A stretch of DNA of 64,000 nt from an uncultured Gammaproteobacteria bacterium (GCA_965230965.1 OZ246401.1:666937-730936), one strand, 5' to 3'. Positions 2,162-61,485 are shown, numbered from the stretch's first letter. Translations and numbers: made by a program. Notes: a model not told the origin generated them from the letters alone.

Positions 2162-2166
2162 CAAAC

Positions 2167-3070: not shown

Positions 3071-3475
3071 ATGGAGGTTGACATGGCAGACGTGACCGTC
3101 AAAGAGGCTTTGTGCATACTCGCCACTCCCTATCTCTGGATCATTCTAGGGGCATTGTTGTTTGGGTCTGCGATCCCAAACAAGTCGATCGCAAGAGTGC
3201 TTGGGTTATGCATTGCTGGACTGGGCATTGGGTTGAGGTTGGTCTTCTACTCTGCCTCGGTACGACAACTCAATCCTGCGTTCCACATGTGGCTTACGCA
3301 AAGCGGCCCGGCCACAATCGGGTGGATCAGCCTCTTCTTGGGGGCTTTGTCTACACATGTTGGGATTGAGCTAATAAAGAAGGATCGGATAGACGGTGCC
3401 TTGCTCCTCATGATTGCCGTTATCGAGGCGGCGGTTGCTGTTGTCCTAGTCATCCTGCCAGCTGTACCTATCTAG
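3071..3475 (+). CDS. small integral membrane protein (hypothetical)
   Basis: 134-aa ORF with about four hydrophobic helices. G+C is visibly higher than in the flanks. No homology recognised. Confidence 0.55.
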   Translation: MEVDMADVTVKEALCILATPYLWIILGALLFGSAIPNKSIARVLGLCIAGLGIGLRLVFYSASVRQLNPAFHMWLTQSGPATIGWISLFLGALSTHVGIELIKKDRIDGALLLMIAVIEAAVAVVLVILPAVPI

Positions 3476-6509: not shown

Positions 6510-6532
6510 AAGACCGTGTCTTATTTGATCGC
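6510..6532 (-). repeat. partial copy of the conserved motif (AAGACACGGTCTT core) spanning the sortase stop and the aclB promoter
   Basis: Minus strand reads gcgatcaaataagacacggtctt, directly abutting the TATAAT box. Confidence 0.45.
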
Positions 6533-7237
6533 TGGCTCGGCGAAAATCAGCATGCGTTGTGCAACTGTGCCTGGAGGCCAACAGGTCTGCAGCGTTAGAA
6601 ACTCGGTGTCAGTCTTTTTTGTAATGTAGCCTACCTCGCTAGGGTCAACGATTGTTTTTCCCGTCACGTTATATTTATGGCGAATGCCATGAAAGTAGAG
6701 ATTAATTTCATCGCCAACTTCCAATTTATATAACAGATAAAAAACCGCATTGTAGCGGCTCACATTTGTAAATGTATTTGTTGAATGCGCAAAAAGATAA
6801 ATATGGCCGTGCTCACCAGGGAATTTTGTTCCGGCAGCATGTGCTACACCAGATTCAAGCGCTGGTAAATATTGATCTGGATTAGCACTATCAACATTAG
6901 GAATAATATTTGCATTAGCACCAAGTTTAGGAACAAGAATGGAGAAGTTTGGATCTTTAGGTACAAGAACTTCAACATTATTTATTTTCAGCGCATCGCT
7001 CAACAAGCCTTTCGGCCCAGTATTTTCAGGTTGAGTAAATGTGGGAGCTTCATCAGCGAGTACATACTTTTTTCCAACGACCTGATTGTATGCGTATTTG
7101 ACTTCCTCTAGCGCTGGCTTATAGAAGACCCAGCTGATCATATAGATCGAGAATAGAACCAAAAAATTACCTACGGTTCGTAGCGTTAGAATGCGATAAA
7201 ACTCACTACGTGACATATTCTTGGGGATCGAGATCAT
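6521..7237 (-). CDS. sortase family transpeptidase
   Basis: Catalytic-Cys motif TLQTCWP (TLxTC), upstream His in HIYLFAHS, downstream Arg in VAQRML, and an N-terminal TM anchor. Confidence 0.8.
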   Translation of the reverse strand: MISIPKNMSRSEFYRILTLRTVGNFLVLFSIYMISWVFYKPALEEVKYAYNQVVGKKYVLADEAPTFTQPENTGPKGLLSDALKINNVEVLVPKDPNFSILVPKLGANANIIPNVDSANPDQYLPALESGVAHAAGTKFPGEHGHIYLFAHSTNTFTNVSRYNAVFYLLYKLEVGDEINLYFHGIRHKYNVTGKTIVDPSEVGYITKKTDTEFLTLQTCWPPGTVAQRMLIFAEPAIK

Positions 7238-15485: not shown

Positions 15486-15494
15486 TATAAGCAG

Positions 15495-15580
15495 CGGAGG
15501 TGATGGGATTCGAACCCATGAGAGGTTTTCACCTCGCAGGTTTAGCAAACCTGTGCACTAGGCCACTATGCGACACCTCC
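15495..15580 (-). tRNA. tRNA-Ser (anticodon GCT)
   Basis: Hand-folded: acceptor ggaggtg/cacctcc, anticodon stem caggt/acctg with loop ttGCTaa, long variable arm gaggt-gaaa-acctc, T-arm atggg-ttcgaat-cccat. Confidence 0.85.
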
Positions 15581-15635: not shown

Positions 15636-15702
15636 CTTTACTTCTTGACATGTTTGTCCAAAAAAATTACCATCAAATACATAGAGTAAGTTTGCATAAG
15701 CC

Positions 15703-18700
15703 ATGGTTAACAAATTGTTCAAAAAAGTTTCATCTGACCTCACTTTATTGCCTCACAAGGGTCTCTTTGTAACCCTATTTTTACTTATATCACTCTTGGT
15801 TACATTTGAACTTGCCCGTAACCCCGTCTTTAGATTGACCCGAGCTGACGAACTCAATTTGCCTGAGGGTTACTCTGCACTCGAATACTTACAAGCGTTG
15901 GGCCAAGCCGACACAAACAATGATGGCGTCATTAATCTTTTCGACTATGCTGTGCTCATGGATCAGGATTATGGAAAGCAAGACGCATTTATTACGTCTG
16001 ACGTTAATTATGATCAAAAAGCCAATGCGCTCGATGCCTCGTTCATGCTTAATCATTTTTATACCGAAGTTGACGGTGAACGTGAAAAAATCTTCTCAAG
16101 TCAACAGTACATAGATGAAATAAATAAAGAAATTGCCATGCGCAATGAAGATAAGCTTCCACAATCAAACGCTGATGACACTACGCTTTCTATCACCTCA
16201 GAAGAAGGTGGCTCTGAACCAGAATTTGGTCGTAACGTCATTCCACAAGTTTTAGGAACAGTTTCTGCATATACTGGAGCTTCTGCTTTTTCCATGAGTT
16301 TTGATGTGCCTAAAGGTCCTGGTGGTCTTGCTCCTGCGCTTGGTCTCAGCTATTCTTCTGCTTCGATTGATGATGCACGTGACAACGGCAGCGATGGCGG
16401 AAAACCTTTTTACGTCGATGCAAGCAGATACACTCCATTCCAAGCAGGTTACGGATTCTCGCTTTCTGGTGTAGGTTCAATTATCCGAGATACAAAAGGT
16501 GAGAAGGAAGTATATAAGTTGAAGGGTAATCTTTACCATCGTTATATTTTAAATCTTCCAGGAGGTATTTCAGCAGAGATGAAATATAATCCAACAACTG
16601 GTCGATGGGTTTCGATTCCACAATCTTTCATAAAAATTGAACATCGATCACCAGGAAAAGTCACCCTTGGAGCCCTAAGCTATCTTGATCCTTGGGATTG
16701 GAAGATTACGACTAAAGATGGGACGACATACTTTTTTGGCGAGGAGAATATAGAAACAAAATTAGCTGCAGATGCGCGTATTCATGGCTCAGAAGATATT
16801 CGTAATGCTGAAGGCAACCTAACTGGTACAAAGAATGGTAATCTATACGTTGAATTTGATAAAGGACAGTTATGCAAAGGTGATAGCGAACGTGATCCTT
16901 GCCGTGAAAGAGAGAAAGATGGGAAAGTCTTAATTGTGACAAAATGGCTTCTTCGCAAAGTAGAAACCGCTGATGGTCGTGCTATAAATTACACGTACGA
17001 CACACAGCAGAGTTATCTTGAAAAACCTTGGAAAGATACTTCAATTGCATTTGTTACCGCAACATCATATCCAAAGGAAATTACATGGAACGATGGAAAA
17101 CATCGTGCACGATTCGTTTTAGAAGACCGTCCTGATAAAGCTAACAATGGCTTCATGAACAATCGTATAAAGGAGGTTGTTGTAGAGACTAAACAGCAAG
17201 ATGATGATCAATATCATTTAGTTCGCCGCTACGCGCTGGGATATTTCGATTTAAATACAAAAACAAAAGACTTTTTGGGAGTAAAAGCCGGCGAAGAAAA
17301 TGAAGGTATTGCAAATGAATTTAAAGCATCATTCCTCACGTCTGTGCAAGAATTCGGTACGGACAACACGACAGCTCTACCACCAACGACGTTTAAGTAT
17401 ATACAATATGCCTTCCCACCACAGGGCTATCATGGTGGGGAGATTTATCTCTCAAATATTAATAATGGATATGGTGGCGAAACGCGATTTGCTTACCAAC
17501 CATTAACAGTAGGTGCATTTGATCCGAACGGGAAGGTTGCCCCTGGAAAAAATTGGCGTGTGCGCGTTATTCAAAAAGAAGTCGCAGATCTTGTAGCTAA
17601 TAAGTCCTCGCGTGAAACGTATACCTATGGTGATGCTGTGCAATTCGGAGAAAATTATCGCAAAGCTCCCGTTGGAGAAGGTGGATTTGCACTAGAATTT
17701 CTTGGTCATTCAAGTGTTGAAGTAAAACAGTATGATTTTGATGGTTCATTGCTTGGTCATTCCGAAACATTCTTTAATCAAGTCAATAGAGGAGAGGGCT
17801 GCTTTGAGCCCCATCCTGCAAAAGGTCAGCCATATCGTCAGGTTGTGTATCGTGGAGATGGCAAAGATATTGCTCAAGAAACGGATAGTGTCTTTCGCTA
17901 TCGACTTGATGGTCAGGATGGATTGAACCCGTCAGATGGATGTCAGAAGGATCGTAGAAACCAGCCATTGTTCCTATATGCATACGATACGACGAACGTA
18001 CAAAGAGAGCCTGCAAAAGATTTCGTACCGCTTGCATTCAAGAATAAAGTTCAGAGTGGGGGAAAGTCAGAGTTACGCACGTTGCAGAGGGTATTGGCTC
18101 ATGATGAGTATGGAAATCAAACATTATCTGTTAACTATGGTGAGGTTGATAGTAATGGCCACGATGTCGATACAAATGATAATCGTTTTTCGTACGCATA
18201 TTATTTAACGTCCGGTGAAAAATGGATAAAGGGACTCTCTAATTTAAGCTATGCATCAACGGTTCAGAATTGTGCGCCTGAAAATCTCGCCTGCCAATAT
18301 GGCCGCACAAAGTCATACTACGATAATTTTGATAAGAATTACTGGGAGTTAACGGCCGAAGAATTGCAGCCTCGATTCGGCTTCCTTACACAAAAAGAAA
18401 CATGGATTGACGATACACATGTTTCGGTTGAAGGATACGTTTACGACGATCTCTCGGGTAATAAAAATGATCAAGATCTTCGCAAGGGTGGCATCACACA
18501 AACCTATGGTCCAAAACCCAACATAAAAACCATTCAAGATGCACGAAAGGATGTCATGCTCATCTCGGAGAAGAAGTATGATCCGTATTATCACACACTC
18601 ATTTTGGAAGAAAAAAACGCTGCCGGATTTAAGAAGAATTACGAGGATTACAATATTTTAATTCAAATACCTACAACCATTAAGACACAAGTCCAAAATG

Positions 18701-20745
18701 TGCCCGAAGCTTTTGCTGTAAGTCGTATGCAATTTGATGCATTAGGTAGAATGACAGCACAATATGCGCCAGATCCAGAGAAGCTTGGTAACACGCTCGA
18801 CATACCATCATCACGAACGTACTTTTTTGAACAAGGGAATAATGGTTTGGTTATACGTAATGCACAGCTAACTTCACAAACACAAGATGGTCAACGACAC
18901 TATCAATTTTCGGACACGTTCTATGATGGTATAGGTCAAATACGACAGACTCAAGTATTGCAGACAAAAGTAGACGGTAAGGATCTAAGGAAAATAAATA
19001 ACAATGAGTACCATGCTGATGGAAGCACATCAAGAAGCTATGAGATACAAACAGCGGCACCTATGAATGTTGATATAAATAATCTCGGTGCCGTGCAGCC
19101 ACAGTATATTGCAGATGCAGCAAAAGTTGTGAATTCAGAAGTCCAATTTGATGCTTTGCGCCGTCCAGTGACAGCTACAAAAATTGAGACTCTAAGCGGC
19201 AAAAAATTCACGTCCACAACAGAATATACAATTCTTGGTTCAAAGAGCACCGATCCAAATGGTGTAGAAAAGATTGCTCTTGCTGATGTATGGGGTCGTG
19301 GAAAGTATGCCTTCACACAGGATCGCTCAAAAGAAAATGTACTTTTGACGGTCAATGAATATACAAAACCACTACTTGATAAGGCAACAAAAACAACGAT
19401 CGTTGATAAAGCAGGTACAAAAACCGAATCAATTTTTGACTACGATAAATCCGGTCGTTTGCTCTTCTCGCAGGATCCATCACTCGGTCAGTACCGCTTT
19501 GAATATGATATCTACGGAAATAAAACGCTTGAGATAAGCCAGCCACGTGAGGATGTGGGGTATGAATACGACCTACTTGGAAGATTGGTAAAAAAAACAT
19601 ACTTTAGCCTGAGTCAAGGTGAGTTATATAATAAAATGGTCAGTGACGAGGTTACCTATGACTACGATAACGGTCCATTCGCATTAGGAAAGCTAACAAA
19701 GGTACATCACCTTACAGGCTCGAAGGAATTTACCTATGACGGTGGGCAACGCCTTACAAAAACACGCATAGCTACATTCTCGAATGCTAAGGATTTCACC
19801 ACAACCTACAATCAGCTCTCTCAAGAAATAGAATCAACCTATCCTGATGGAACAAAGATCAATAAAGAATACGATCGTGAAGGAAGAGTGGTAAAGATGA
19901 AGGTCGATGGAAAAGATGTCTTTACAGGAGCAATATATGATAAGTTTGGCAACCAAAGAGTCGCACAAGTACAATTCCAAGGCACTCAATACACAAATAC
20001 AAACGATTTTGACACCTTAGGGAGACTTAAAGTGCTTGGTGTATCTAAAAAAGCAGCAGCATTTGGGGTTGGCATAGTTGATCAGGATCTTATAAAACAG
20101 AACCTAAACTACAACGACTATAGCGAAATTGACACACTTGATGAAACTGTTTCTGGGCAAACAACACTTTTTGACTACGGTTATGATGGATTCTCACAAC
20201 TTACGTCCGTTAAATCACCACTATATAACACATCGTACGAATATGATTTATTTGGTCGTATGTTAAAGAAGCAAGAAAAAGATAATGTGGTGATGAAATA
20301 TTCTTCAACATATCCATTCTTTGCCCCAAAGACAGTTGAGGTTACTGGCGAAGAGCAGACTGATGTCCAGCCAACAACTAGTCCGACCCCAGCAGTACCA
20401 ACGGCAACATTAACCCCAGTCCCGTTGCCAACAAAAGGTCCTGTTGAACAAACTCTCGGACTTACTACACGCTCGTACGACATTGGTTATACAAACGAGG
20501 GTGGTATGAAAAACGATGAAAATAACTGTTACCGTTACAATCGTGAAGGTGAATTAATCTTCTTGGGGATTAAGAAAAATAAAAAAGGCATGTGTTCAGA
20601 TGATAATTTTAAGAAAATCTACATGTTCTATTATGACGAGGGTGGAGCAATGAACTTACAAGAAGAATACGATCCGGCGAATCTACAAAAACCAACAAAG
20701 CAAATTTATCTATTTGGTCAATATGAAGAAGAGGTCACTAATTAA
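15703..20745 (+). CDS. RHS/YD-repeat shell protein with an SpvB/TcB-like N-terminal region and an N-terminal dockerin-like module; no RHS core or toxin tip
   Basis: TM anchor. Double Ca-loop DTNNDGVINLFDYAVLM / DVNYDQKANALDASFML at aa 69-118. SpvB-type FSMSFDVPKGPGGLAPALGLSYSS. YD repeats YDYDKSGRLLFSQD, FEYDIYGNKT, YEYDLLGRLVKK and YEYDLFGRM. The C-terminus ...IYLFGQYEEEVTN lacks a DPxG core motif. Confidence 0.85.
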   Translation: MVNKLFKKVSSDLTLLPHKGLFVTLFLLISLLVTFELARNPVFRLTRADELNLPEGYSALEYLQALGQADTNNDGVINLFDYAVLMDQDYGKQDAFITSDVNYDQKANALDASFMLNHFYTEVDGEREKIFSSQQYIDEINKEIAMRNEDKLPQSNADDTTLSITSEEGGSEPEFGRNVIPQVLGTVSAYTGASAFSMSFDVPKGPGGLAPALGLSYSSASIDDARDNGSDGGKPFYVDASRYTPFQAGYGFSLSGVGSIIRDTKGEKEVYKLKGNLYHRYILNLPGGISAEMKYNPTTGRWVSIPQSFIKIEHRSPGKVTLGALSYLDPWDWKITTKDGTTYFFGEENIETKLAADARIHGSEDIRNAEGNLTGTKNGNLYVEFDKGQLCKGDSERDPCREREKDGKVLIVTKWLLRKVETADGRAINYTYDTQQSYLEKPWKDTSIAFVTATSYPKEITWNDGKHRARFVLEDRPDKANNGFMNNRIKEVVVETKQQDDDQYHLVRRYALGYFDLNTKTKDFLGVKAGEENEGIANEFKASFLTSVQEFGTDNTTALPPTTFKYIQYAFPPQGYHGGEIYLSNINNGYGGETRFAYQPLTVGAFDPNGKVAPGKNWRVRVIQKEVADLVANKSSRETYTYGDAVQFGENYRKAPVGEGGFALEFLGHSSVEVKQYDFDGSLLGHSETFFNQVNRGEGCFEPHPAKGQPYRQVVYRGDGKDIAQETDSVFRYRLDGQDGLNPSDGCQKDRRNQPLFLYAYDTTNVQREPAKDFVPLAFKNKVQSGGKSELRTLQRVLAHDEYGNQTLSVNYGEVDSNGHDVDTNDNRFSYAYYLTSGEKWIKGLSNLSYASTVQNCAPENLACQYGRTKSYYDNFDKNYWELTAEELQPRFGFLTQKETWIDDTHVSVEGYVYDDLSGNKNDQDLRKGGITQTYGPKPNIKTIQDARKDVMLISEKKYDPYYHTLILEEKNAAGFKKNYEDYNILIQIPTTIKTQVQNVPEAFAVSRMQFDALGRMTAQYAPDPEKLGNTLDIPSSRTYFFEQGNNGLVIRNAQLTSQTQDGQRHYQFSDTFYDGIGQIRQTQVLQTKVDGKDLRKINNNEYHADGSTSRSYEIQTAAPMNVDINNLGAVQPQYIADAAKVVNSEVQFDALRRPVTATKIETLSGKKFTSTTEYTILGSKSTDPNGVEKIALADVWGRGKYAFTQDRSKENVLLTVNEYTKPLLDKATKTTIVDKAGTKTESIFDYDKSGRLLFSQDPSLGQYRFEYDIYGNKTLEISQPREDVGYEYDLLGRLVKKTYFSLSQGELYNKMVSDEVTYDYDNGPFALGKLTKVHHLTGSKEFTYDGGQRLTKTRIATFSNAKDFTTTYNQLSQEIESTYPDGTKINKEYDREGRVVKMKVDGKDVFTGAIYDKFGNQRVAQVQFQGTQYTNTNDFDTLGRLKVLGVSKKAAAFGVGIVDQDLIKQNLNYNDYSEIDTLDETVSGQTTLFDYGYDGFSQLTSVKSPLYNTSYEYDLFGRMLKKQEKDNVVMKYSSTYPFFAPKTVEVTGEEQTDVQPTTSPTPAVPTATLTPVPLPTKGPVEQTLGLTTRSYDIGYTNEGGMKNDENNCYRYNREGELIFLGIKKNKKGMCSDDNFKKIYMFYYDEGGAMNLQEEYDPANLQKPTKQIYLFGQYEEEVTN

Positions 20746-22237
20746 GTCGATAGCGTTGCTAACTGCGTCAGTTTTTTCACTGACGTATTTTTTTCTTATC
20801 CCGTTTGCAAGAATTAATGCTTCTCACGCTCAAAATCCTGATGTTCCACAGCCGACACGAACTCCTAATGTAGAGAAGCGCATAAGCAAAGTGTATATAC
20901 CGACGGGTGCGAGCTCCACGTTTATGAAAACAAGTGAGGGTGAAGAGAATCTTCTTATTCAAGATCACATAACTTCAACACGTATCGTTGAATCAAATAA
21001 GGGTGAGGAGCAGCAGGCATATTATCCATATGGTATGACGAATGGGGAAGCAAACACGATTTCAGATAAACAGTTTACAAGCCATCGAAGTCTTGCTGAT
21101 ACGGGCGTGTATCATGCGGGTGCTCGATTCTATAATCCACAATTGGGTGTTTTTGTATCGGCAGATAAAGTGCAGGGTCCGAATAGATATATGTATGGTG
21201 CAGCGAATCCAACGCTTTACACCGATCCATCAGGAAAAATTATTCCTATTATTATCGCAGCAATTATTATTGGCGGCGCAGCATTTGGTGCTGGCTTCGG
21301 AGCGGGCTATGAACATGGGACTCAGGTAGCAAAATACGGATCAGTTAAAGAGCCGTCAAATATTATCGTGGCAGGAGTAGCTGGCGGTGCAGTCGGTGCT
21401 GGCGCAGGATATATGGGTGCCGTGGCTATTCCGGCAGCAATAGGTGCTGTCAGTACGGGAGTTGGGGCCGCAAGTGCAGTCGGCGTTATGGGTGGAGCTC
21501 AGATTGGCGTGGCGACATGCTTGGGAAATCCTAACTGCGTTAGGGCAGTTGAGTCTGGTGCTGAAATAGCTTCAGGATCAAATCTTCCACCAGGATACAG
21601 TGCCGCAAATTATATAACCTCACCATATAATCCAGGTGAGGCTTTTTATGATCCTCGCCAAGCTTCCAAAGCCGTTGATGAGCTTGTTGACTCTGTCAAT
21701 GAAGGCCGTTCAGTATTTGGTACTGTTTTGGTTAAGGGCACTTGGCAAATTGAAACAGACTATCGAATTAGAACAAGTGATATAGCTGGTCAAGATGAAG
21801 CTATTGCTAACGATATTGTAAAACGAGTGAATAGCCAACTTGCCTATGATCTAGGCAGAGCAGACTATGCTGATGGCTTAGGCTCGCTTGATGCTTTGTG
21901 GGAAGGTGGCACAGGTGTGTGTAGGCACGCTGCTAGTTTATGCACAGGAGCTGCAATGAAAATTTGGGGGGAAGATGCAGCTGAATATTTTGCCTTTAAT
22001 CGTATTCCGAAGGGTGTTGCATCGATGGGGCAAGATGCCACAGAAGGATTTGCCGCTCATGCTGTCGCGCATATAAATACTGGCTTTTTCAATGCAACTC
22101 TAGATGCATCAAATGGTTCTCGTGGTTTAGTCACAGGAATTAGTGACCTTGAATCGTATGCCAGAAATTTTGGTCAAGTTGATGGTGGTGTGAGATACTC
22201 TTTTAACAATCGCTCTGGTTCATGGGTACAAAAATAA
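20714..22237 (+). CDS. secreted RHS-repeat-associated core protein with a variable C-terminal toxin-like domain (Gly-zipper plus transglutaminase/papain-like Cys-His-Asp)
   Basis: Signal peptide (the ATG at 20723, MKKRSLIK, may be the true start). Core: LIQDHITSTRIV..YYPYG..KQFTSHR..GVYHAGARFYNPQLGVFVSADK..GPNRYMYGAANPTLYTDPSGK. Then IIAAIIIGGAAFGAGFGAG...GAGAGYMGAV, then GTGVCRHAASL...AAHAVAHIN...LDAS. Confidence 0.75.
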   Translation: MVNMKKRSLIKSIALLTASVFSLTYFFLIPFARINASHAQNPDVPQPTRTPNVEKRISKVYIPTGASSTFMKTSEGEENLLIQDHITSTRIVESNKGEEQQAYYPYGMTNGEANTISDKQFTSHRSLADTGVYHAGARFYNPQLGVFVSADKVQGPNRYMYGAANPTLYTDPSGKIIPIIIAAIIIGGAAFGAGFGAGYEHGTQVAKYGSVKEPSNIIVAGVAGGAVGAGAGYMGAVAIPAAIGAVSTGVGAASAVGVMGGAQIGVATCLGNPNCVRAVESGAEIASGSNLPPGYSAANYITSPYNPGEAFYDPRQASKAVDELVDSVNEGRSVFGTVLVKGTWQIETDYRIRTSDIAGQDEAIANDIVKRVNSQLAYDLGRADYADGLGSLDALWEGGTGVCRHAASLCTGAAMKIWGEDAAEYFAFNRIPKGVASMGQDATEGFAAHAVAHINTGFFNATLDASNGSRGLVTGISDLESYARNFGQVDGGVRYSFNNRSGSWVQK

Positions 22238-23493
22238 TAATTCTACACGAGTGTATTGCTATAATCTGTTTTCTGGGGTTTTTTACAGGTGGTGCCAATG
22301 CCCAAGAAACGACCACTCGCCTTTATATTCCAACTTCGTCTCAAACCACACTGATTAAAGAAGGGAATGAGAGCTCTATGATAGTAAAAGATTATCTAGG
22401 TTCGACAAGGCAAAAAGATTTTTATCCATATGGTACAGACGTGAAAAATACGGCAAGTACCACGGATAGACAATTTACTGGCCATAGAAATCTTGAAGAT
22501 GCACACATCTATCATGCCGGCGCACGATTCTACAGCCCTGAACTCGGTCAATTTATTCAAGCAGACGAAGCCGAAGGCCCCCAACGATACGCCTATGCAC
22601 TTAATAATCCTGTCACACACACAGATCCAACGGGGAATTGTGTCGAATGCCAACAGGAAGAACCCCAATATATCGATATCAGCGATTATTACACACAATA
22701 TGCATTGAGTCCAGAATTTAGAGGCGCAGATATCTATCAAATGCCACCAGATCAAGGCATATCAGACAGCATTTATTATCCAGTTGTAGGAGGGGCAGCC
22801 GCAGGAGCTGTTGTTGCTGGAGGTATATACGCAGCCCCTGTGGTTGCAGGCTCAGGAGTAGTTTCTTCAATAGGTAGTGCCGCGAGCACAGCGCTCGAAT
22901 ACTCTGCGGTTCAAGGAGCCATCGGCAGTGTTGGTGTGGAAGCGATAGGGCAAGGAATTCAAGGGAAATTTGATGGGGAAAAACTTGTTACACAAGGTAT
23001 TGTAGGTGCAGTTGGTGGAAAGTGGATTGGTGCGGCTCGTGGATTTATAAGTCCACGGTATGCTAGTTTAATTGAAAAAAGCCCGGCATTGGTACGTGCC
23101 GCAGCAAATACGAAAGTTGGCCATTTGGCCTATGAGTTTACGGCAGAATCTGCAATTGTATCACCACTTATTGCGTATGGGACGGCTCACGATATGAGAA
23201 AAGTTGATGGCCCTACATTTGGAAAAGCATTTCTTACGAACTACTTAGCTACAAAAGCCGGGCTTCAAGTTGCAATGTTGGGTAGATATGGTGGAGGAAA
23301 GCTGGGTGGGGTTGTGACAAAAAAAGCTTTGAACAAAATGTTTCCTCAGATTGAGGGAATACTGACAAACACGGGGACATATTTTGGGTTAACCAATCAT
23401 CTGAGAACAAACAATTCGATCCAAGAACCACTACGAAATTTGGAGGCGGCTATTGTGAAGAGTTTTATGGGAAAGGAGTCATATGCGCACTAA
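22222..23493 (+). CDS. secreted RHS-repeat-associated core protein with a variable Gly/Ala-rich C-terminal domain
   Basis: Signal peptide ...GGANAQETTTRLYIPTS. Core: VKDYLGSTR..FYPYG..RQFTGHR..IYHAGARFYSPELGQFIQADE..GPQRYAYALNNPVTHTDPTGN. The C-terminal ~280 aa is unrelated to those of the neighbouring cassettes. Confidence 0.75.
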   Translation: MGTKIIILHECIAIICFLGFFTGGANAQETTTRLYIPTSSQTTLIKEGNESSMIVKDYLGSTRQKDFYPYGTDVKNTASTTDRQFTGHRNLEDAHIYHAGARFYSPELGQFIQADEAEGPQRYAYALNNPVTHTDPTGNCVECQQEEPQYIDISDYYTQYALSPEFRGADIYQMPPDQGISDSIYYPVVGGAAAGAVVAGGIYAAPVVAGSGVVSSIGSAASTALEYSAVQGAIGSVGVEAIGQGIQGKFDGEKLVTQGIVGAVGGKWIGAARGFISPRYASLIEKSPALVRAAANTKVGHLAYEFTAESAIVSPLIAYGTAHDMRKVDGPTFGKAFLTNYLATKAGLQVAMLGRYGGGKLGGVVTKKALNKMFPQIEGILTNTGTYFGLTNHLRTNNSIQEPLRNLEAAIVKSFMGKESYAH

Positions 23494-24688
23494 ACTGGTC
23501 GTTATTCTAACTTTTTCGTATTTATTTTTATCTGTCGTGGCAACGCAACGCGTGACTTTTGCTCAAGAAACAACTACTCGCCTTTATATTCCAACATCAA
23601 ACCAAACAATGATCGTAAAAGATGCTGCAAAAACTTCTCTTGTGGTGAAAGATTATCTTGGTTCAAGTAGGGCCGTTGACCAAAACAACACGATGCAGGT
23701 AGAGGAATATTATCCATATGGTGCGGACGTGAAAGATATGGATATTGATGTAGATCGGAAGTTTACGGGCCATCGTGAGCTCGATGACGCAGGTGTCTAT
23801 CATGCCGGAGCGAGGTTTTATAATCAGGAATTAGGTATTTTTGTGCAGGCAGATAAAGTTGAAGGACCAAATAGATATGGATATGTACAAGGGAATCCAA
23901 TAAGCAATAATGACCCAACAGGACATTCTTCAAGTAATAATATGACAGAGTCACAAAGAGTTGGAAATCCTTTACCTGATTTCCCTCATGCATTGCCGCT
24001 GCAGGATATAAGATATGCGGAACTTTATAACGACCCATTATTGCCAAAGCTCGCCGAATATTATACAAAGAAAAATCCATATGATCCCGTAAAAAATAAA
24101 AAGGAATTTGTTGAATACTTATCCAAAGATATATATGAAAGTTCATCTTATAACAAAGATCTAGCAAGAATATGGAGACAACAATCAGAAGTTGAATCAA
24201 GTATTTCATATATGAGTCATATAGATCAAAGTGATGAGAGATTTAAAAATATCCCAGTAGAAACTGAACTTCAAGATTTATATCAAGCTCAGCGGGCTTA
24301 TGATAAAGAAGAAAAACAGTATCATCGTGAGTACAAAAGTCTTTCTCTAGGTCAAAGAATGGCTAATTGCAAGTCAATCTGCGCGGATTTTACAGCATTT
24401 ACCGGTTATGTCTTAGCAAAAAATGGCATTGCAACTGCCGTTGGGGGTACCGACGATTTACAACATGCCTTTGGTGTGGTTGAAATTGGAAATGTTCCTT
24501 ATGTCTATGATACAACATGGGGCGGTGGTCAAATGCATACTTTTTTTGAAGATAGAACAGGCCAGAATAAATGGAGAAGACACTATGAAACATGGGATTT
24601 CCAAACCCCCTGGGGCAATAATTTTGAATTCAACCTACAAAATACTACGGATGAGGATAAGAACGATGGTCTCTCACCATATTATTAA
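23483..24688 (+). CDS. secreted RHS-repeat-associated core protein with a variable C-terminal transglutaminase/papain-like domain
   Basis: Signal peptide ...VTFAQETTTRLYIPTS. Core: VKDYLGSSR..YYPYG..RKFTGHR..GVYHAGARFYNQELGIFVQADK..GPNRYGYVQGNPISNNDPTGH. The C-terminus has CKSICADFTAFTGYVLAKNGI...LQHAFGVVEI...YVYDTTWG (Cys/His/Asp order). Confidence 0.75.
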   Translation: MRTKLVVILTFSYLFLSVVATQRVTFAQETTTRLYIPTSNQTMIVKDAAKTSLVVKDYLGSSRAVDQNNTMQVEEYYPYGADVKDMDIDVDRKFTGHRELDDAGVYHAGARFYNQELGIFVQADKVEGPNRYGYVQGNPISNNDPTGHSSSNNMTESQRVGNPLPDFPHALPLQDIRYAELYNDPLLPKLAEYYTKKNPYDPVKNKKEFVEYLSKDIYESSSYNKDLARIWRQQSEVESSISYMSHIDQSDERFKNIPVETELQDLYQAQRAYDKEEKQYHREYKSLSLGQRMANCKSICADFTAFTGYVLAKNGIATAVGGTDDLQHAFGVVEIGNVPYVYDTTWGGGQMHTFFEDRTGQNKWRRHYETWDFQTPWGNNFEFNLQNTTDEDKNDGLSPYY

Positions 24689-26496: not shown

Positions 26497-27321
26497 ATGA
26501 TCATAGGCGGACATGTTTCTATTGCAGGAGGATTAGACAAAGCTGTTGGTCGAGCAGTAGCCGAGGAGTTTAATGCGATGCAAATTTTCGTCTCCTCACC
26601 GCGCTCATTTAAACCCAATATTTATACAACAGAGCAGATCAATGCATTTGTAGCTGCATACAAAACTGCTAAGATGCAGGCACTCTTTTTTCATGCAATA
26701 TATTTGGTTAATTTGGGAAGTGAAAATGAAAATTTGCATACGCTATCTATAAATTCGCTCAAAAACTACTTAGAAGTGGGTGAGCAACTAGGCTCCAATG
26801 GTACGATCGTACATATTGGTAGCGGAAGTATTGAAAAAATATCAGAAAGTCTTGCGCATATTCTTTTCGATACTCCCACGTCACAGAATGTTTTGGTAGA
26901 AAACATGGCATCTGAGAAACGTGTTATCTTTAAACTTGAACAGTGTGTCGAGATTTTAGAGCGCGTGCAATCGGATCGTGTAAAATTTTGTATTGATACG
27001 CAGCATCTTTTTGCCTCTGGCATTGATATTCGCGATGGAGAAACGGTAAAAAATTGGCTTGATGATGTGGAACGTATGATTGGTATTGAAAAAATCGCCT
27101 GTATTCATGTTAATGATTCAAAAACAGCTTGCGGCTCACAGCATGATCGTCATGAAAATCTTGGTGAGGGTGAAATTGGCCTTGCAGGAATCAAAAAATT
27201 TCTTTCAGAACCGCGTCTCGCACATATTCCATTGATTCTAGAAGTTCCAGGTTTTGCCGATAAAGGACCAGATAAGAAAAATAAGGATCTACTTATGAAC
27301 GCTCTTCAAGGTACTCTCTGA
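26497..27321 (+). CDS. nfo: deoxyribonuclease IV (endonuclease IV, AP endonuclease family 2)
   Basis: MIIGGHVSIAGG, HAIYLVNL, VENMA, CIDTQHLFASG and HVNDSK..GSQHDRHENLGEGEIG blocks. Confidence 0.9.
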   Translation: MIIGGHVSIAGGLDKAVGRAVAEEFNAMQIFVSSPRSFKPNIYTTEQINAFVAAYKTAKMQALFFHAIYLVNLGSENENLHTLSINSLKNYLEVGEQLGSNGTIVHIGSGSIEKISESLAHILFDTPTSQNVLVENMASEKRVIFKLEQCVEILERVQSDRVKFCIDTQHLFASGIDIRDGETVKNWLDDVERMIGIEKIACIHVNDSKTACGSQHDRHENLGEGEIGLAGIKKFLSEPRLAHIPLILEVPGFADKGPDKKNKDLLMNALQGTL

Positions 27322-28150
27322 CAGCTTTTAAAGCAGGAGCGTAATTTAATTGTGGTGCAGCATTAGCCTCAAATATATATGGTTTTCCTGTTTCTTTATC
27401 CACAACAATGTCCACTCCGCATACCTCGCGTTTTAATAACTTACTAGCTTTTTCAGCAAGCTTACAAAGCTTACGTATCTTTGTATGATCAACAAGTTCG
27501 CGACTACCGCCTTTAGAGACATTATTTAAATGAGTATCGGTATTCTTTCCTCTAATACGCTTATATACAATGGTCGTTTTATATCCCACGGTGAGTATTC
27601 TATAGTCAAAATCGTTTGGAATAAATTCTTGAGCAACAAAAAGCATATCCTCTCCATAGTTTGCCATAACATGCACGAATTCTTCTTTATTCTTAATGCA
27701 AAAATTATCTTCACCTTTACGACCCCCAACGGCTTTAATGATAAAAGGGTAGCCAAGTTTTTTTTCGAAAATGGGGAGCATTTTTTTCATCTTATCGGCG
27801 AAGGCGATGATACTATGAGGAAAGGGGAGCCCATTAAAGAGGAATATTGCATATTGATATGATTTTGAGGAAATTTGTTTGGCTAAAAGTGCACTATCAA
27901 TAAACGGAATGCCTAATTTATTAAGACAAAGTGCGAGGGGAATTGCCATCTTTTCTTTATCGTCAGCGGTACGGAAGTATACAAAGGAATAGTCAGTGAT
28001 ACTGTGGTTTTTTTCTACAATTTCAAAGGTAGAACTCTTAGGTTCTAATTCAATAGAAATATCATTGTATGAACGAAGTGTATGCCCACTACTTAATCTG
28101 TGGTGGTGTGGTTTATCAGGAAAAGATGATAGTATTAATACTTTTTTCAT
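27293..28150 (-). CDS. RimK-type ATP-grasp ligase
   Basis: PFIIKAVGGRKGEDNF, LFVAQEFIPNDFDYRILTVG and VCGVDIVVDKETGKPYIFEANAAPQL. The 3' end overlaps the convergent nfo gene by 29 nt. Confidence 0.8.
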   Translation of the reverse strand: MKKVLILSSFPDKPHHHRLSSGHTLRSYNDISIELEPKSSTFEIVEKNHSITDYSFVYFRTADDKEKMAIPLALCLNKLGIPFIDSALLAKQISSKSYQYAIFLFNGLPFPHSIIAFADKMKKMLPIFEKKLGYPFIIKAVGGRKGEDNFCIKNKEEFVHVMANYGEDMLFVAQEFIPNDFDYRILTVGYKTTIVYKRIRGKNTDTHLNNVSKGGSRELVDHTKIRKLCKLAEKASKLLKREVCGVDIVVDKETGKPYIFEANAAPQLNYAPALKAVREYLEERS

Positions 28151-29586
28151 AATGATGGTGTTTTTGTTTTTGCTGGATCTACTAAAAAGTCCTTCAAGTC
28201 TTTTTTACCAATAATGATGGGGAAAAGCAGATTGCTTCTATCGGTAACTGTTGCATGGGCAAGAAATTCTCTTTCTTGCATTTTTGCCCGAAGCCCAAGG
28301 ATAATACGGTAACTTCTTCCGTTACTATTTACGATAACTTCAGTATTGACAATGTCGTTGTCTCCCTCGGTCAGAATAGTATGGTATTTTTCTGCGATTG
28401 CGACACCTTCTTCGAGAGTTGCAATTTGCTTTGGAATATCAAGTTTCTCAAATTGTTTGATTGCCTGACTGTATCCAAGATCAATAGCGATCTGGCGATC
28501 GATTGAAGAGTAGGTTGCGCCGGTGTCGATTTTTGCCATGTAGGTAATGCTGCGTTTTTCTGTTTTGTGGTAAAGTTTTACCGGTTGAATGAGGCCAATG
28601 ACTTTTTTACCGGCAATAGCTTCAATTTCTTCTTCAATCTCACCTCCAAAGAGATCTTTGCCAAGGCGAATGCCGTGGGCAATTGTTTTTGCACGGACGT
28701 GTTTTATTTGTTCAAGTCTCCAACGAAGACCATCTTGATTTGCAAGTTGAATACGAAGGCCAGGTCGTGCGTTGAGCTCGACGACAAGTGGACCACGCTC
28801 ACGGTCAATAAGGAAGTCAACCCCACAAAAGCCAAGTCCGGTGGCTTTTGCGGACTTAACTGCATACGTTAATATCTTATCCCAGTAGGGAACTTTGAAA
28901 CCAGAATAGCGTATGCGAGTGACATCAACATACTCAAGATCAATAATGCGACCCTCTTTTGTTTCTTTAATGGTGTGGGTCGTAATACCTGTTGCTAAGT
29001 CAAGGCCGCTGCCTGCAGCGCCTTGAGAAAAATTTGCCCGCCCGGCAGAATCTTTAGTTGGCCAGCGAATCATAGCCATAACCGGAACTTTTTTAAATAC
29101 GATAACACGGATATCTGGTACGCCTTTGTAACTGAATGGCCTTAATTTATGGTGCGGGCGCACTCTTTCTTCAATAAGAACTTTATCTGGACTGTAATTT
29201 AAAGAATATGCACCTTCCAAGATGTTCGCCATCTGCGTTTTTAACGCCTCTGGCGTAATTTTTTGTCCCAGTGCATTAATAAAATTGCCGTCCTTGTCGC
29301 GGTTATAAATAATCTCTATGCCTTGCCCCGCGACGCCACTACCTGGCTTAACCACAAATGTTTTTGGCAGCCCTTCTATATCAAGTTTTGCAAGTTGATC
29401 AGGATTCTTAACAATATGCAAAACCTTTGTTGTTGGCACTTCGACATCAGCGAGTATTTTTTTGGTGAGTAATTTATTATCGGCTATTTTTCGGGCCGAG
29501 GGAAGATTGTACTTTTTAACGTACGATATATTGCGTTCATTAAGTCCAAGAATGCGCGATTTATTCGCTAAGATCTTCAGGATCAT
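28147..29586 (-). CDS. ATP-grasp (alpha-L-glutamate-ligase-like) protein fused to a C-terminal retropepsin-like domain
   Basis: TFVVKPGSGVAGQGIEII, IRVIVFKKVPVMAMIRWP and FCGVDFLIDRERGPLVVELNARPGL. The C-terminus has AKIDTGATYSSID ... LLFPIIIGKKDLKDFLVDP, as in the RimK-associated protease family. Confidence 0.75.
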   Translation of the reverse strand: MILKILANKSRILGLNERNISYVKKYNLPSARKIADNKLLTKKILADVEVPTTKVLHIVKNPDQLAKLDIEGLPKTFVVKPGSGVAGQGIEIIYNRDKDGNFINALGQKITPEALKTQMANILEGAYSLNYSPDKVLIEERVRPHHKLRPFSYKGVPDIRVIVFKKVPVMAMIRWPTKDSAGRANFSQGAAGSGLDLATGITTHTIKETKEGRIIDLEYVDVTRIRYSGFKVPYWDKILTYAVKSAKATGLGFCGVDFLIDRERGPLVVELNARPGLRIQLANQDGLRWRLEQIKHVRAKTIAHGIRLGKDLFGGEIEEEIEAIAGKKVIGLIQPVKLYHKTEKRSITYMAKIDTGATYSSIDRQIAIDLGYSQAIKQFEKLDIPKQIATLEEGVAIAEKYHTILTEGDNDIVNTEVIVNSNGRSYRIILGLRAKMQEREFLAHATVTDRSNLLFPIIIGKKDLKDFLVDPAKTKTPSL

Positions 29587-30274
29587 GGGAGTCTTGACTC
29601 AGAATGTTTCTAAATCTGAAATATTCAAGAAGCTTAAGCCCTCGCCATTTACCAACTAAAAAGCTAGTAACGATCATAAGGCCTGCGATTTCTGGATAAT
29701 CAATAAGTGCGTTTTGCAAAATTTCTTGACTCATCAAAATGAAAAGAGCAGAGGCAAGAATAATGGTGAAAATCATCAAGCGTATAGCCTTTTTGACACC
29801 ATGTCGTACATAGCTTTTTACCAACGCTTCAACCGACACTATAAAAAGAAGAATAGTCAATGGATTGACCATGTTGAGCGAAACCTGGTCAATATAGGTA
29901 GAAACATACAAAAGGAAGAGGGTTCCAATAGTCGAAAACGACATGACGATACTTACTTTTGAAAGATAATGAAGTCTGACATCATGCAACCACGAATGTA
30001 CCATAAGTCCTACTGCAGAGGTTGCCACGATAAATAAACTTCCATAGAAAAGGGCACCTGAATAGTCAGTGAGACCTTTGTGAATGTAGCCCAGGTCAAA
30101 CAAGGCATACGCAAGCAAGATAGTTGTATAGATATTAATTGTTCTCCAACCAATAATATAGCGCGTAATAGTTATAAGCGCTGTTACCAAAGGGAGAAAG
30201 AGCAACATAATGATTGTATACTCTGAAATCCCGCTGCGAATTAAGTATTGTATAAATGGTGCAAACATGCTCAT
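29561..30274 (-). CDS. 7-TM membrane protein, first gene of the ATP-grasp operon
   Basis: About seven hydrophobic helices and no soluble domain. Overlaps the next gene by 26 nt. Confidence 0.55.
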   Translation of the reverse strand: MSMFAPFIQYLIRSGISEYTIIMLLFLPLVTALITITRYIIGWRTINIYTTILLAYALFDLGYIHKGLTDYSGALFYGSLFIVATSAVGLMVHSWLHDVRLHYLSKVSIVMSFSTIGTLFLLYVSTYIDQVSLNMVNPLTILLFIVSVEALVKSYVRHGVKKAIRLMIFTIILASALFILMSQEILQNALIDYPEIAGLMIVTSFLVGKWRGLKLLEYFRFRNILSQDSHDPEDLSE

Positions 30275-30322: not shown

Positions 30323-30679
30323 ATGGACTCAATAAAAGACGTTTTAAAGACATTTAATCCCACATCAGACCGCTATATATCAAGAGAATATCAATCATTT
30401 GGCGTGCATCTCGCCGAGAAACTCGGCGACGAACAACATAAGAGTTTGTATATTAAATTATCCAAACAAGTGCCGCGCCCAATGTTGTTAAAAGCGTTGC
30501 AGTTTGTGGTCGATTCGGGCGCACGTAGGAAAGGAGCGCTTTTTATGTGGAAGCTCAAGGAATTAAATGCATTTCCAGAAAAAATCAGCTCAACAAAGAA
30601 GAAAAAGGCACGATCCTCAACAAGACCTGGTCTTACTGTTCCCGACGTAGTTCAGGGTTCAATTCTGGAGCAAGATTAA
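30323..30679 (+). CDS. hypothetical protein
   Basis: ORF with a TATACT box (30307-30312) 10 nt upstream of the ATG at 30323 (MDSIKDVLK). The Lys-rich C-terminal tail overlaps the convergent gene and contains a copy of the 28-nt motif. Confidence 0.45.
   Translation: MDSIKDVLKTFNPTSDRYISREYQSFGVHLAEKLGDEQHKSLYIKLSKQVPRPMLLKALQFVVDSGARRKGALFMWKLKELNAFPEKISSTKKKKARSSTRPGLTVPDVVQGSILEQD
30607..30634 (+). repeat. copy of the conserved ~28-nt motif at a convergent gene junction
   Basis: ggcacgatcctcaacaagacctggtctt, located where the 3' ends of 30323..30679 (+) and 30633..32756 (-) overlap. Confidence 0.55.
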
Positions 30680-32756
30680 GTCTACAACCCTCACCTTTGC
30701 CGAAGTTAGCCTGCGTAAAGACGAGGTCAAATCCATTGATAATACCATCGCCATTTATATCAGAGCTATTTTGATCGGTCGGTCCAATCTCTTCTGCATA
30801 TTTTGTAGCTACAACAGAGAAATCGTTTGCATTACAGCAAGAATCTTTATTAACATCACATGCGTCAATTTCAGTTACCCCTTGCCCGGTTATGCTTCCT
30901 GCTTCTGAGGCTACGATACGATAAATGACGTTCTGGCGGAGTGGGGTGGTTACCTCATTTGGACAATTCACAGGTGTTGAACTACCTTCGAATGTAGCTC
31001 GGCACTTAACGCTGTAATCATTAATACCTTGTGGCAAGACCAAATTTGTCTCAACTGTGCCTCGTTGTCTTGGCTGGATCGAGGTATTAACAAGTTCAGA
31101 TGTGCATTGTGTTTTTCCTGGACCATAACAGGTGATTGTTGTAATACTGGTCACCGCTTTTGAGGAACCATTGTAGAAGGAAATACTTGTGTAAAAACCA
31201 GCATTTGATGTGTCTGGCGTTGGTGTTGGTGAAAATCTAGGATTTGGTGTTGCTGTTGCGCGTGGGGTTAAGCTTGGTGTAGGTGGAATTGTGGTTGGTG
31301 TTGGTGACCAGATTGGTGTTGCTGTAGGTGCGGCATTTTCACAGCTTACAGCACCAGAGCTACGTACGTTTGCCTCATTTTCTGTTGTGGGATATTTTGA
31401 TTTATCAAAGGTACACACAATCACCTGACCAGCAGGGAGTGTAATTGCATTTTCTACTTCAAAGAAATTTTGAACCAGTTCTGGTGTATCAACAGGCGCA
31501 TTGACCTCACAAATTTTATCATTTTCGTCAAATGTGCCATTACAGCGACCTAACAGCCAATAGAGTTTTTCCTCAGTTGTGCCATTGTTGTGATAGGTGA
31601 CTTTAATATTGTTGCCCGCGGCGCTTGAACTACATTGTCCGCGATTACCTTCGCTATCAGAGCCTTGTTTGTTATTTGTGTCGATTGCATGTGTACACGG
31701 ATCGAGCAAAGATCGTGCTTCGCCATCCTCTTTTCCAAGTCGCAATTCATACGTTGTGACATTGGCGGTAGGGAGTTGCAACTTAAATGTTGTTGTTTTA
31801 CCTGAAGCGCCGAGATTAATACCACATACAAATGCACCAAAATCTACATAAGAAGGCGAACAATTTGTATTGTTTATTGGTTCAATACGCACTCCCGTAT
31901 TATCTGCCTTTCCATCATCACGCTTGTAGTCGTAGAAAAGCACAAGAGCTTTTGCACCTCCTGGTGTATCATTTATTGTTAAATTCACCGTCTTATTTAT
32001 TGTCGTACCTGTACCTTTGCGTGTAATATCTGTGTTTGATGTTTTGTTTCCCTGTGCGCCACACGATTCCCAGTTAATGTCTCCTTGTTCGGTAAAATCA
32101 CAGGTCATGGCGGTTGCTTGGAACTCTGTAAAGTTAGATTTCCATGTTCCCGCAAGCTGCAGATTGACCGTTATGTCGCCTGGCTGAGCTGGAGTAGGTG
32201 ATTGATTCGGATTGTTTGTTGGTTGTGGATCGTCAGGACAGAAGTAGCTGCGACTTATTTTTCCTACCTCTGCTTGTAGCTGCCATGGTGGGCCAGCTGT
32301 GTCAACACGAATATCAAGATCGCCAGCTGGTAAACATTCAGCGCCTTCTGGCAGGCGGGTTGCCGCTGGCATATTTATAGGCGCATTAAACAAGAGCATT
32401 GGATTGCCATCTTTGCAGCGAGCAGTAGCAGGGTTTGAAACTGTCTTTTGTACACTGGCGCCAATAGGAATTTCTGGCTGCAAAAGATCGTCATGATATA
32501 TCGATACTTTCCATTTTCCATTTAATGGTGGGTTGTTGGTAAAACAAAGTCCGCCAGTTAACATATAATCCCAGCGATTATGCGGAGCCAAGCTGGTAAA
32601 TTCGATAGTTACATCTTGATTTGCCACCTCGGTTAACTCAGGTGGGACTGCAGCTTCGGTTGTTCTTTGTTGAAGCTGGGGGCTTGTTACCAAGGAGACA
32701 CCAATGATAAGTCCTAGTGTCATTATTGCTAAAACGGCTAATGATAGTGTTTTCAT
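30633..32756 (-). CDS. large secreted surface protein with a C-terminal dockerin-like module
   Basis: Signal/TM anchor. Pro/Thr linker APTATPIWSPTPTTIPPTPSLTPRATATPNPRFSPTPTPD. C-terminal double Ca-loop CDVNKDSCCNANDFSVVATKY / DINGDGIINGFDLVFTQANFG. Confidence 0.75.
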   Translation of the reverse strand: MKTLSLAVLAIMTLGLIIGVSLVTSPQLQQRTTEAAVPPELTEVANQDVTIEFTSLAPHNRWDYMLTGGLCFTNNPPLNGKWKVSIYHDDLLQPEIPIGASVQKTVSNPATARCKDGNPMLLFNAPINMPAATRLPEGAECLPAGDLDIRVDTAGPPWQLQAEVGKISRSYFCPDDPQPTNNPNQSPTPAQPGDITVNLQLAGTWKSNFTEFQATAMTCDFTEQGDINWESCGAQGNKTSNTDITRKGTGTTINKTVNLTINDTPGGAKALVLFYDYKRDDGKADNTGVRIEPINNTNCSPSYVDFGAFVCGINLGASGKTTTFKLQLPTANVTTYELRLGKEDGEARSLLDPCTHAIDTNNKQGSDSEGNRGQCSSSAAGNNIKVTYHNNGTTEEKLYWLLGRCNGTFDENDKICEVNAPVDTPELVQNFFEVENAITLPAGQVIVCTFDKSKYPTTENEANVRSSGAVSCENAAPTATPIWSPTPTTIPPTPSLTPRATATPNPRFSPTPTPDTSNAGFYTSISFYNGSSKAVTSITTITCYGPGKTQCTSELVNTSIQPRQRGTVETNLVLPQGINDYSVKCRATFEGSSTPVNCPNEVTTPLRQNVIYRIVASEAGSITGQGVTEIDACDVNKDSCCNANDFSVVATKYAEEIGPTDQNSSDINGDGIINGFDLVFTQANFGKGEGCRLNLAPELNPELRREQ

Positions 32757-32759
32757 TGT

Positions 32760-61483: not shown

Positions 61484-61485
61484 GT

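Follow-up and report, generated by a model that had tools for sequence, protein, structure and literature searches.

The 64,000-nucleotide stretch of DNA analysed here (GCA_965230965.1 OZ246401.1:666937-730936; hereafter the window) belongs to an uncultured, ultra-small bacterium of the Microgenomates, in the candidate phyla radiation (CPR), and holds on its plus strand, at 15703-20745, the gene for an Rhs shell, a B-like subunit of 1680 residues without Rhs core or toxin. The open reading frame (ORF) begins with a K-rich start and a hydrophobic helix, either a signal peptide or a signal-anchor (KGLFVTLFLLISLLVTFEL, residues ~19-39, predicted as helix 19-39; 15757-15819), after which a putative cleavage site can be read between TRA and DE. 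A two-loop dockerin module follows (residues ~67-123, 15901-16071; loops DTNNDGVINLFD and DVNYDQKANALD) and then what is probably the cocoon's N-terminal region of SpvB/TcB type (residues ~178-480, 16234-17142), which opens with GRNVIPQVLGTVSAYTGASAFSMSFDVPKGPGGLAPALGLSYSS, a typical start of SpvB/TcB-type proteins. The remaining ~1200 residues (481-1680, 17143-20742) are predicted to form the RHS/YD-repeat beta-cocoon wall, and here RHS_repeat (PF05593, 42.8 bits) and YD_repeat (TIGR01643, 43.8 bits) both score above their Pfam and NCBIfam cut-offs, repeats of this kind being matched in all nine members of the shell family. Ahead of the last ~95 repeat residues the alignment places a Pro/Thr-rich linker (20347-20463), variable in length among homologs and missing from some, at which the model falls below a predicted local distance difference test (pLDDT) score of 50 (model residues 1071-1107). 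The C-terminal strand KQIYLFGQYEEEVTN (20698-20742) is the end point across the shell family, and its counterpart in an unsplit relative is ...LYAGNIEKNLQTG. An NCBIfam scan of the shell protein gave no match to the Rhs-associated core TIGR03696, and so the core and toxin that a canonical Rhs toxin joins to its repeats within a single polypeptide are absent from it.

Assignment of the SpvB/TcB-type region comes from alignment to that unsplit relative, P0111 of Ca. Shapirobacteria, and from structure comparison by Foldseek. By hhalign the shell family can be paired with P0111 from nearly one end to the other (probability 100%, E 1e-58), and the equivalent region passes Pfam SpvB in P0111 (35.7 bits) and in the shell of one other locus, L018 (26.3 bits). 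An AlphaFold2 (AF2) model of shell residues 1-700 (pLDDT 63.2) found its best PDB matches in the TcB components YenB (E 4.9e-10) and TcdB1, and additionally matched the SpvB N-terminal domain 6p0x (E 1.5e-5). A second model, of residues 481-1680 built on nine sequences, consists throughout of beta-hairpins (pLDDT 68.5, predicted template modelling score 0.56); the TcdB2-TccC3 cocoon is its top PDB match (E 1.5e-33, template modelling score up to 0.56 on the query), followed by Rhs proteins of type VI secretion systems (T6SS) and by teneurins. As modelled, residues 481-1680 are thus a beta-cocoon fold. The FG-GAP and TcdB_toxin_mid propeller signatures were found by Pfam in no member of the shell family, and both are present in the TcB-like control P0011. 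This control had also been tried as an end-to-end comparator and was given up for P0111, since its hhalign alignment covered the repeat region only and was uninformative on the ends. The initial annotation had read a TM anchor, a two-loop dockerin-like module, an SpvB/TcB-type motif and a long YD/RHS run in this 1680-residue ORF, and all of these have stood up, the anchor as a hydrophobic N-terminal helix, the dockerin at the family level and the SpvB/TcB-type region as a probable one, by its homology to P0111 and the Foldseek matches.

Three co-oriented genes lie directly 3' of the shell, each coding for a signal peptide, a last RHS hairpin, an Rhs core and a variable C-terminal domain, and are referred to below as cassettes or core-toxin subunits. 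The first (20723-22237, 504 residues, putative signal peptide ending SHA before Q) overlaps the shell end by 23 nt in a different frame, has its hairpin and core at residues ~50-173 with DPSG, and ends in a domain whose Cys and His residues, as read by eye, are arranged much as in transglutaminase-like cysteine peptidases. The second (22222-23493, 423 residues, ANA before Q) has hairpin and core at residues 27-140 with DPTG and then a Gly/Ala-rich C-terminal domain of unassigned fold; the third (23483-24688, 401 residues, TFA before Q) has them at residues 27-149, also with DPTG, and its C-terminal domain gives a weak, transglutaminase-like match to DUF553 (16.4 bits, below the cut-off). Adjacent cassettes overlap one another by 11-16 nt. 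With 57.3, 63.4 and 62.3 bits respectively, the three score well above the TIGR03696 cut-off of 32.5 bits, and the cassette core profile matches the PDB cores of YenC2, RHS2, TccC2/3, SGS1 and T6SS Rhs proteins. The hairpin begins 3-20 residues past the predicted cleavage site, and only ~20-45 residues of RHS hairpin stand ahead of the core in these C-like proteins. The earlier view that the cocoon-forming part is encoded without a plug or cargo therefore holds in cis, but not overall, as these adjacent signal-peptide genes supply both.

The core-less shell is not peculiar to the window. Full-length shell homologs from different samples (n=8, 35-74% identity, 1596-1884 residues) all end at ...YxFGxYEE, and the same end is seen in further shells from genome collections, namely those of Microgenomates OLB23 and of metagenome-assembled genomes (MAGs) of Roizmanbacteria. 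When the core hidden Markov model (HMM) was scanned over all six frames of the window and of 17 related loci, core ORFs were found only directly 3' of the shell, one to three per locus and none elsewhere. Complete or partial core ORFs occur at 13 of the loci (L001, L002, L004-L007, L009-L011, L013, L014, L016 and L017); L015 is counted apart, only the 3' end of its shell being present, and at L008 and L003 the onset of a signal-peptide ORF is visible even at the contig end. The core begins 21-65 residues into the cassette protein, past the hydrophobic signal segment, and in one cassette variant an additional ~200-residue domain and a Pro/Thr-rich (PT) linker stand between signal peptide and hairpin. 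A ~200-residue extra domain of shared type, accompanied by PT linkers and ending ..YGW(Y/N)V(K/R)(E/K)KG, is found before the last repeats of the P0007 shell (residues ~1560-1760) and between the signal peptide and hairpin of the L015 cassette at 1123-3168 (residues ~40-200), and motifs similar to its end (..YDWYIRKN, ..AGWVVERR) precede the dockerins of the window proteins at 36952-38682 and 38712-39506. Shell and cassette overlap by 23 nt in the window, are separated by 2 nt in L020 and have a whole cohesin gene between them in L018, and because the geometry of the junction differs in this manner among lineages there is no conserved recoding site. A repeat search found no DNA repeat linking the shell 3' end with the cassettes.

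How the two products relate to a canonical Rhs protein is best seen against P0111, which in 1801 residues has a signal peptide, SpvB, RHS repeats, a PT-rich insertion, the core (1471-1590) and a C-terminal domain with HExxH. The last 73 shell residues joined to mature ORF2, a downstream core-toxin product, gave a single BLASTP high-scoring segment pair (HSP) with P0111, ungapped at the junction (E 1e-20), in which GQYEEEVTN of the shell running on into ETTTRLY-IPTSSQTTLIKEGN of the cassette is aligned with GNIEKNLQTGVITRYY-SLGGQEVAVKEGS. The register at the junction was set by this search of the joined sequence, the hhalign alignment of the ends having been one hairpin off. As the HSP crosses the junction, shell and downstream product together amount to a canonical Rhs with nothing missing or duplicated, and the cut, on this alignment, falls within the turn that leads into the last hairpin, one beta-turn ahead of the continuation into the Rhs core. 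Other Microgenomates lineages cut one strand earlier: the core proteins of L018 and L020 begin, immediately past their signal peptides, with TTYYFDGIEKE and TTLYFGPFEK (in general TTLYFGxxEK), and their shells stop before the strand that opens their cassettes. A one-strand displacement of the cut between lineages argues that splits at strand boundaries are real and independently maintained. By sequence, then, a shell without core or toxin is a conserved gene structure and not a frameshift or assembly error, and the initial annotation was right to place the end of the shell just where canonical Rhs proteins continue into the core, as both the family-wide end and the colinearity with P0111 bear out.

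Some of the loci have features of their own. Shell genes are broken into two or three ORFs, by assembly frameshifts or as pseudogenes, in L010 (8004-13066, Microgenomates OLB23) and L020 (197-6280), which accounts for the short OLB23 protein on deposit (979 residues). On the JGI 3300037851 contig of L018 (3353-11338) the shell is followed by a 291-residue cohesin protein with a Cys-rich tail and then by the signal-peptide core-toxin gene. The module at the C-terminus of this shell, after a PT linker, was considered as a dockerin and set aside, having one Ca-loop-like motif, an hhalign probability of 15% and no Pfam match. The records of L009, L011, L013 and L015-L017 are titled 'uncultured Gammaproteobacteria bacterium' despite a locus of Microgenomates type, which looks like default or mislabelled taxonomy.

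Past the core, the cassettes differ. Two aspartates, 20 residues apart, occur without change in each of the three window cassettes (D88 and D108 of alignment A2, within ..ADK/ADE.. and DPSG/DPTG), and their spacing and position agree with the cleavage-site Asp named in PDB entries for Tse15 (D1369/D1391) and TccC3 (D651); from general knowledge of Rhs/TcC cores we take them to be the self-cleavage residues. None of the three C-terminal domains has a Pfam or NCBIfam match above cut-off, and PDB sequence searches with those of cassettes 1 and 3 gave no match. These domains vary among cassettes and close relatives between constant flanks, the shell 5' and a minus-strand GDSL-like gene 3', and across loci they include Trypsin_2, NTP_transf_2, a Kdo/WaaP-type kinase fold, GNAT, an HExxH motif, transglutaminase-like Cys/His patterns and several without match. 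Directly past DPSG in cassette 1 lies a hydrophobic Gly-zipper (IIPIIIAAIIIGGAAFGAGFGAG...GAQIGV; residues ~170-295, window 21230-21600), which every close relative retains in its type-1 cassettes, the sequence beyond it being variable; one relative gives a weak PT-TG match at this region, and the segment may be a pre-toxin or membrane-entry domain. Immunity-sized genes were seen neither between nor after the cassettes in the window and related loci, the next gene being the conserved GDSL-like one, and this absence suggests that the targets are not kin and would be a host or competitor cell. Toxins lacking immunity genes are typically directed at other species. Toxins that are otherwise like polymorphic toxins do occur without immunity genes (Zhang et al., PMC3482391).

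The N-terminal module of the shell is a dockerin when judged across its family. Pfam Dockerin_1 (PF00404) is matched by seven of the nine shell-family members (best E 2.8e-6), hhalign of the family module against the C-terminal dockerins of the window itself spans both loops (98.8% probability, E 5e-17), and the shell module reaches 46.1 bits (E 3e-14) with an HMM made only from seven such window dockerins; cellulosomal dockerins are its top PDB profile matches. On these profile comparisons the module belongs with the genome's own kind of dockerin. Nine other window proteins, two of them VWA proteins, have a dockerin, in all cases C-terminal. Cohesins are present as seven small single-cohesin proteins, four of them with Pfam support, and five are anchored by an N-terminal transmembrane (TM) helix and two by sortase signals (LPETG/LPRTG). 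Candidate docking partners of the TM type lie on the minus strand at 32760-33392 (Pfam Cohesin 38.4 bits), 42077-42631 (48.9 bits with a window cohesin HMM) and 45679-46251 (54.8 bits, same HMM), and further TM-anchored members on the plus strand at 60031-60861 (cohesin-like; 53.0 bits with the window HMM, no Pfam match) and 60851-61483 (Pfam 39.6 bits). The candidate wall anchors are the proteins at 46854-47666 (minus strand; signal peptide, PT linker, LPETG, TM helix and KILL; Pfam 21.3 bits, just below the cut-off) and 61486-62142 (plus strand; signal peptide, LPRTG, TM helix and KALLRI; Pfam 45.1 bits), for which the sortase encoded at 6521-7237 (minus strand, Pfam Sortase 78.6 bits, syntenic in relatives) is the likely anchoring enzyme.

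The initial annotation had located cohesin scaffolds at 30-47 kb and 55-62 kb. The seven modules are indeed there, but as single-cohesin proteins and not as multi-cohesin scaffolds, the 30-47 kb region mainly encoding other dockerin-bearing proteins. The set, with its single, TM- or sortase-anchored cohesins, is one for surface display and not a multi-cohesin scaffoldin, and the shell probably docks onto cohesin anchors at the cell surface. The presence in L018 of a cohesin gene (28.8 bits, above cut-off) between shell and core-toxin genes, within one operon, independently ties cohesins to this Rhs system. The genes of the cohesin-dockerin set are densely packed at 30633-47666 (minus strand) and 55471-62846 (plus strand), with cohesin genes interleaved with those of dockerin proteins, for example at 39503-42055, 42077-42631, 42674-45679 and 45679-46251. 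Cys-rich secreted proteins with PT linkers are encoded at 55471-56817 and 56860-57438 (both plus strand), the second with a weak dockerin-like module at its end (13.3 bits with the window HMM), and near them is a subtilase gene at 51475-53160 (minus strand).

Stand-alone core-toxin proteins are common in the nearest relatives. A profile of the cassette hairpin and core was searched exhaustively against 1.84 billion representatives, and among the best 150 representatives at 50% identity 145 are shorter than 700 residues. A clear N-terminal hydrophobic signal segment is present in 89 of these 145, and several of the remaining short ones represent the same proteins with the gene call cut short. 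Named short members come from Roizmanbacteria and Gottesmanbacteria and unsplit forms from Shapirobacteria, and two short members inspected on their contigs follow a core-less RHS shell either immediately or with a single gene in between. In the literature searched, the coverage of which was incomplete, we came across no account of Rhs systems from Microgenomates; a canonical Rhs with an immunity gene is mentioned for a soil Saccharibacteria genome (PMC6031116).

We favour, with moderate confidence, a Sec-exported two-component Rhs toxin system, similar to TcB/TcC with the cut at another point and with one shell for several plug-toxins. The shell gene would yield nearly the whole cocoon wall, with export helix and dockerin in front, and shell and core-toxin subunits would be exported separately. 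With the dockerin at the N-terminus the C-terminal strand of the shell is left free, and the N-terminal strand of a core-toxin subunit would add onto it. The core would then plug the cocoon, the C-terminal domain would be cleaved after DPxG and be retained inside or at the cocoon, and the loaded cocoon would be displayed at the cell surface by dockerin-cohesin binding. A single 5-kb shell gene would in this way serve one to three interchangeable cargo genes, an economical arrangement for a genome of ~1 Mb, and the Gly-zipper segment past the cleavage site of type-1 cassettes may aid membrane entry. What the analysis establishes is the gene structure and its conservation, the homology and colinearity, and the identity of the domains; complex formation, cargo loading, cleavage, cohesin binding and the target we infer.

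Several points weigh against such a system. Binding between shell and core-toxin subunit is again something we infer. We know of no described precedent for the loading of a separately exported polypeptide outside the membrane; TcB-TcC assembly is cytoplasmic, and a cis-Rhs protein encloses its own tail as it folds. The shell's own Pfam scores lie under the cut-offs both for SpvB (13.6 bits against 22) and for Dockerin_1 (19.0 bits against a gathering cut-off of 22.9). Its dockerin is the sole N-terminal one in the window, and a distant clade (L012-L017) retains the first dockerin loop only. The AF2 models are only moderately confident (pLDDT 63-68), because they come from shallow alignments of 9-10 sequences. 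The signal-peptide cleavage sites were read from the sequence by the A-x-A before Q pattern and not by a predictor. A toxin role is putative for every one of the C-terminal domains, and two of the three in the window have no family match.

The main rival holds that no closed cocoon is made: the cassettes would be free secreted pro-toxins, with the Rhs core as a self-cleaving pro-domain, and the shell an empty, dockerin-displayed adhesin or receptor-binding protein. We consider this unlikely. In its favour, every cassette comes with a signal peptide and could leave the cell without the shell, loading of a cocoon outside the cell has no described precedent, and YD shells of the teneurin type function in adhesion or recognition. 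Free pro-toxins would leave unaccounted for, however, a break placed exactly in a beta-turn, with products colinear with an unsplit Rhs and nothing lost or doubled, and a mature cassette N-terminus that is the very strand missing from the shell. Shell and cassette are moreover strictly adjacent in every lineage examined, the split moves in register across lineages in both together, and a lone hairpin plus core is unlikely to fold unaided. A sortase-mediated ligation of shell to core was also considered and rejected, the shell C-terminus having no LPxTG-type motif.

Two further readings concern the genes themselves. In the manner of enterobacterial rhs loci, the downstream ORFs could be silent orphan Rhs-CT cassettes, expressed only once recombined into the main gene, and the layout, in which one to three cassettes share their core-coding 5' part, differ in the 3' part and lie between conserved flanks, is indeed reminiscent of these. 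The main gene here, though, has no core sequence to recombine with and shares no DNA repeat with the cassettes at its 3' end, every cassette opens with an ATG start and a signal peptide that fusion would place internally, and the fused form is seen at no locus within the shell family, all of which makes silent orphans very improbable. Least credible, to the point of being negligible, is a sequencing or assembly frameshift, a pseudogene or programmed recoding at ~20.7 kb, the true product being one canonical Rhs. The 23-nt overlap of shell stop and first cassette start in different frames might suggest it, as might the frameshifts within the shell of the OLB23 assembly (L010), but the end point is identical in independent assemblies from different samples at 35-78% identity, the varying junctions (overlap, gap or intervening cohesin gene) offer no conserved recoding site, and read-through would put a signal peptide mid-protein. 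The initial annotation had itself named a frameshift or assembly error at this place as grounds for refutation; the relatives surveyed have the same split, and none of the shell family has a fused form.

Beyond the two-component system itself goes the proposal that an Rhs cocoon can be put together and filled in trans once its parts have been exported, with a surface-docked, reusable or mass-produced shell taking any of several separately Sec-exported plug-toxins by simple strand addition. This we advance tentatively, with more doubt than belief. Were it true, genome-reduced CPR bacteria would hold, on a cohesin-dockerin scaffold, a modular and immunity-free contact weapon or host-manipulation device, and the Rhs/Tc/teneurin fold would have a new assembly route; CPR episymbiosis would gain a candidate effector system. 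Assembly of the parts, if it does occur, would mean that a cocoon can be closed and loaded outside the cell and with interchangeable cargo. To our knowledge the molecular means of CPR-host interaction are largely unknown, and here is a concrete and widespread candidate effector system for Microgenomates/CPR bacteria, in which cohesin-dockerin display would be used beyond polysaccharide degradation. A shell that takes cargo in trans by way of a short N-terminal tag would also be attractive for engineering.

Around these genes the window has a few further features. Between 13354 and 15485 (plus strand) are a PhageMetallopep-domain gene and a gene for a DUF2207 membrane protein, always directly 5' of the shell in close relatives (L002, L004, L006 and L007). 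A tRNA-Ser (anticodon gct, 15494-15580, minus strand) lies between the DUF2207 and shell genes, and after it, just 5' of the shell start, a weak promoter-like site (TTGACA-17-TACCAT, 15645-15673, plus strand) was picked up by consensus scan only; its location past the minus-strand tRNA gene weakly suggests that the shell may start its own transcription unit. On the 3' side of the cassette array, two RimK/ATP-grasp genes and a 7TM_transglut-like gene (27293-30274, minus strand) form a cluster conserved in L002 and L006.

Among known systems the BC component of Tc toxins (Photorhabdus TcdB2-TccC3, Yersinia YenB-YenC2/RHS2) is one of the nearest. There too an RHS cocoon, here a predicted one, comes from two adjacent genes. 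The first Tc subunit opens with an SpvB-type region, as the shell probably does, and in the second the Rhs core with its self-cleavage site is joined to a hypervariable toxin. Each half of the shell finds its best structural matches there, and TcC cores match the cassette profile. One Tc B subunit can serve alternative C subunits. In contrast to TcC, which contributes roughly one third of the wall, the C-like subunit here gives the last hairpin and core only. Sec-type signals stand on both subunits, so that assembly would be extracellular whereas that of Tc is cytoplasmic, and the window system has a dockerin tag, no FG-GAP/TcdB-mid propeller and no insect or eukaryote context. No TcA-like partner was found among the window ORFs in a scan that was not exhaustive.

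End-to-end homology and the same order of parts connect the system to the unsplit Sec-type SpvB-RHS toxin of Ca. Shapirobacteria (MBM3209122.1; P0111/P0168). That toxin is one polypeptide without dockerin, whereas the window system is cut and its tail has its own signal peptide and occurs in one to three alternative copies. Zhang et al. 2012 (PMC3482391) class unsplit toxins of this kind as 'TcdB/TcaC-type'. Enterobacterial rhs genes with orphan Rhs-CT cassettes have similar downstream arrays that share core-coding sequence and differ in their toxin ends, but those orphans have no secretion signals, need a core-bearing main gene and come with immunity genes, none of which applies here.

The cellulosomal ScaO/ScaP-type proteins of Acetivibrio cellulolyticus and Clostridium alkalicellulosi join, within a single secreted chain, an Rhs-repeat domain to dockerin and/or cohesin modules (PMC3413522, PMC6780208), and an earlier report mentions both kinds of module for PT-TG polymorphic toxins (PMC13483458). 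The earlier suggestion that a dockerin-tagged Rhs shell is undescribed thus falls in its general form, and stands for the core-less shell paired with stand-alone, signal-peptide core-toxin genes, of which we found no description in the incompletely covered literature. By their descriptions ScaO and ScaP are set apart as multi-domain scaffoldins with peptidase and galactose-oxidase modules, described neither as toxin cocoons nor with split core-toxin partners. Non-cellulosomal cohesin-dockerin display resembles the window set in its TM- or sortase-anchored single cohesins and its many non-glycosidase dockerin proteins (VWA, Rhs shell), and differs in that the dockerin here is N-terminal on the cargo and attached to a toxin-type shell. 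Overall, two-gene RHS cocoons are already known, and what sets this system apart from TcB/TcC is a new split point, signal peptides on both parts, a shell that would be shared and probable cohesin-dockerin anchoring.

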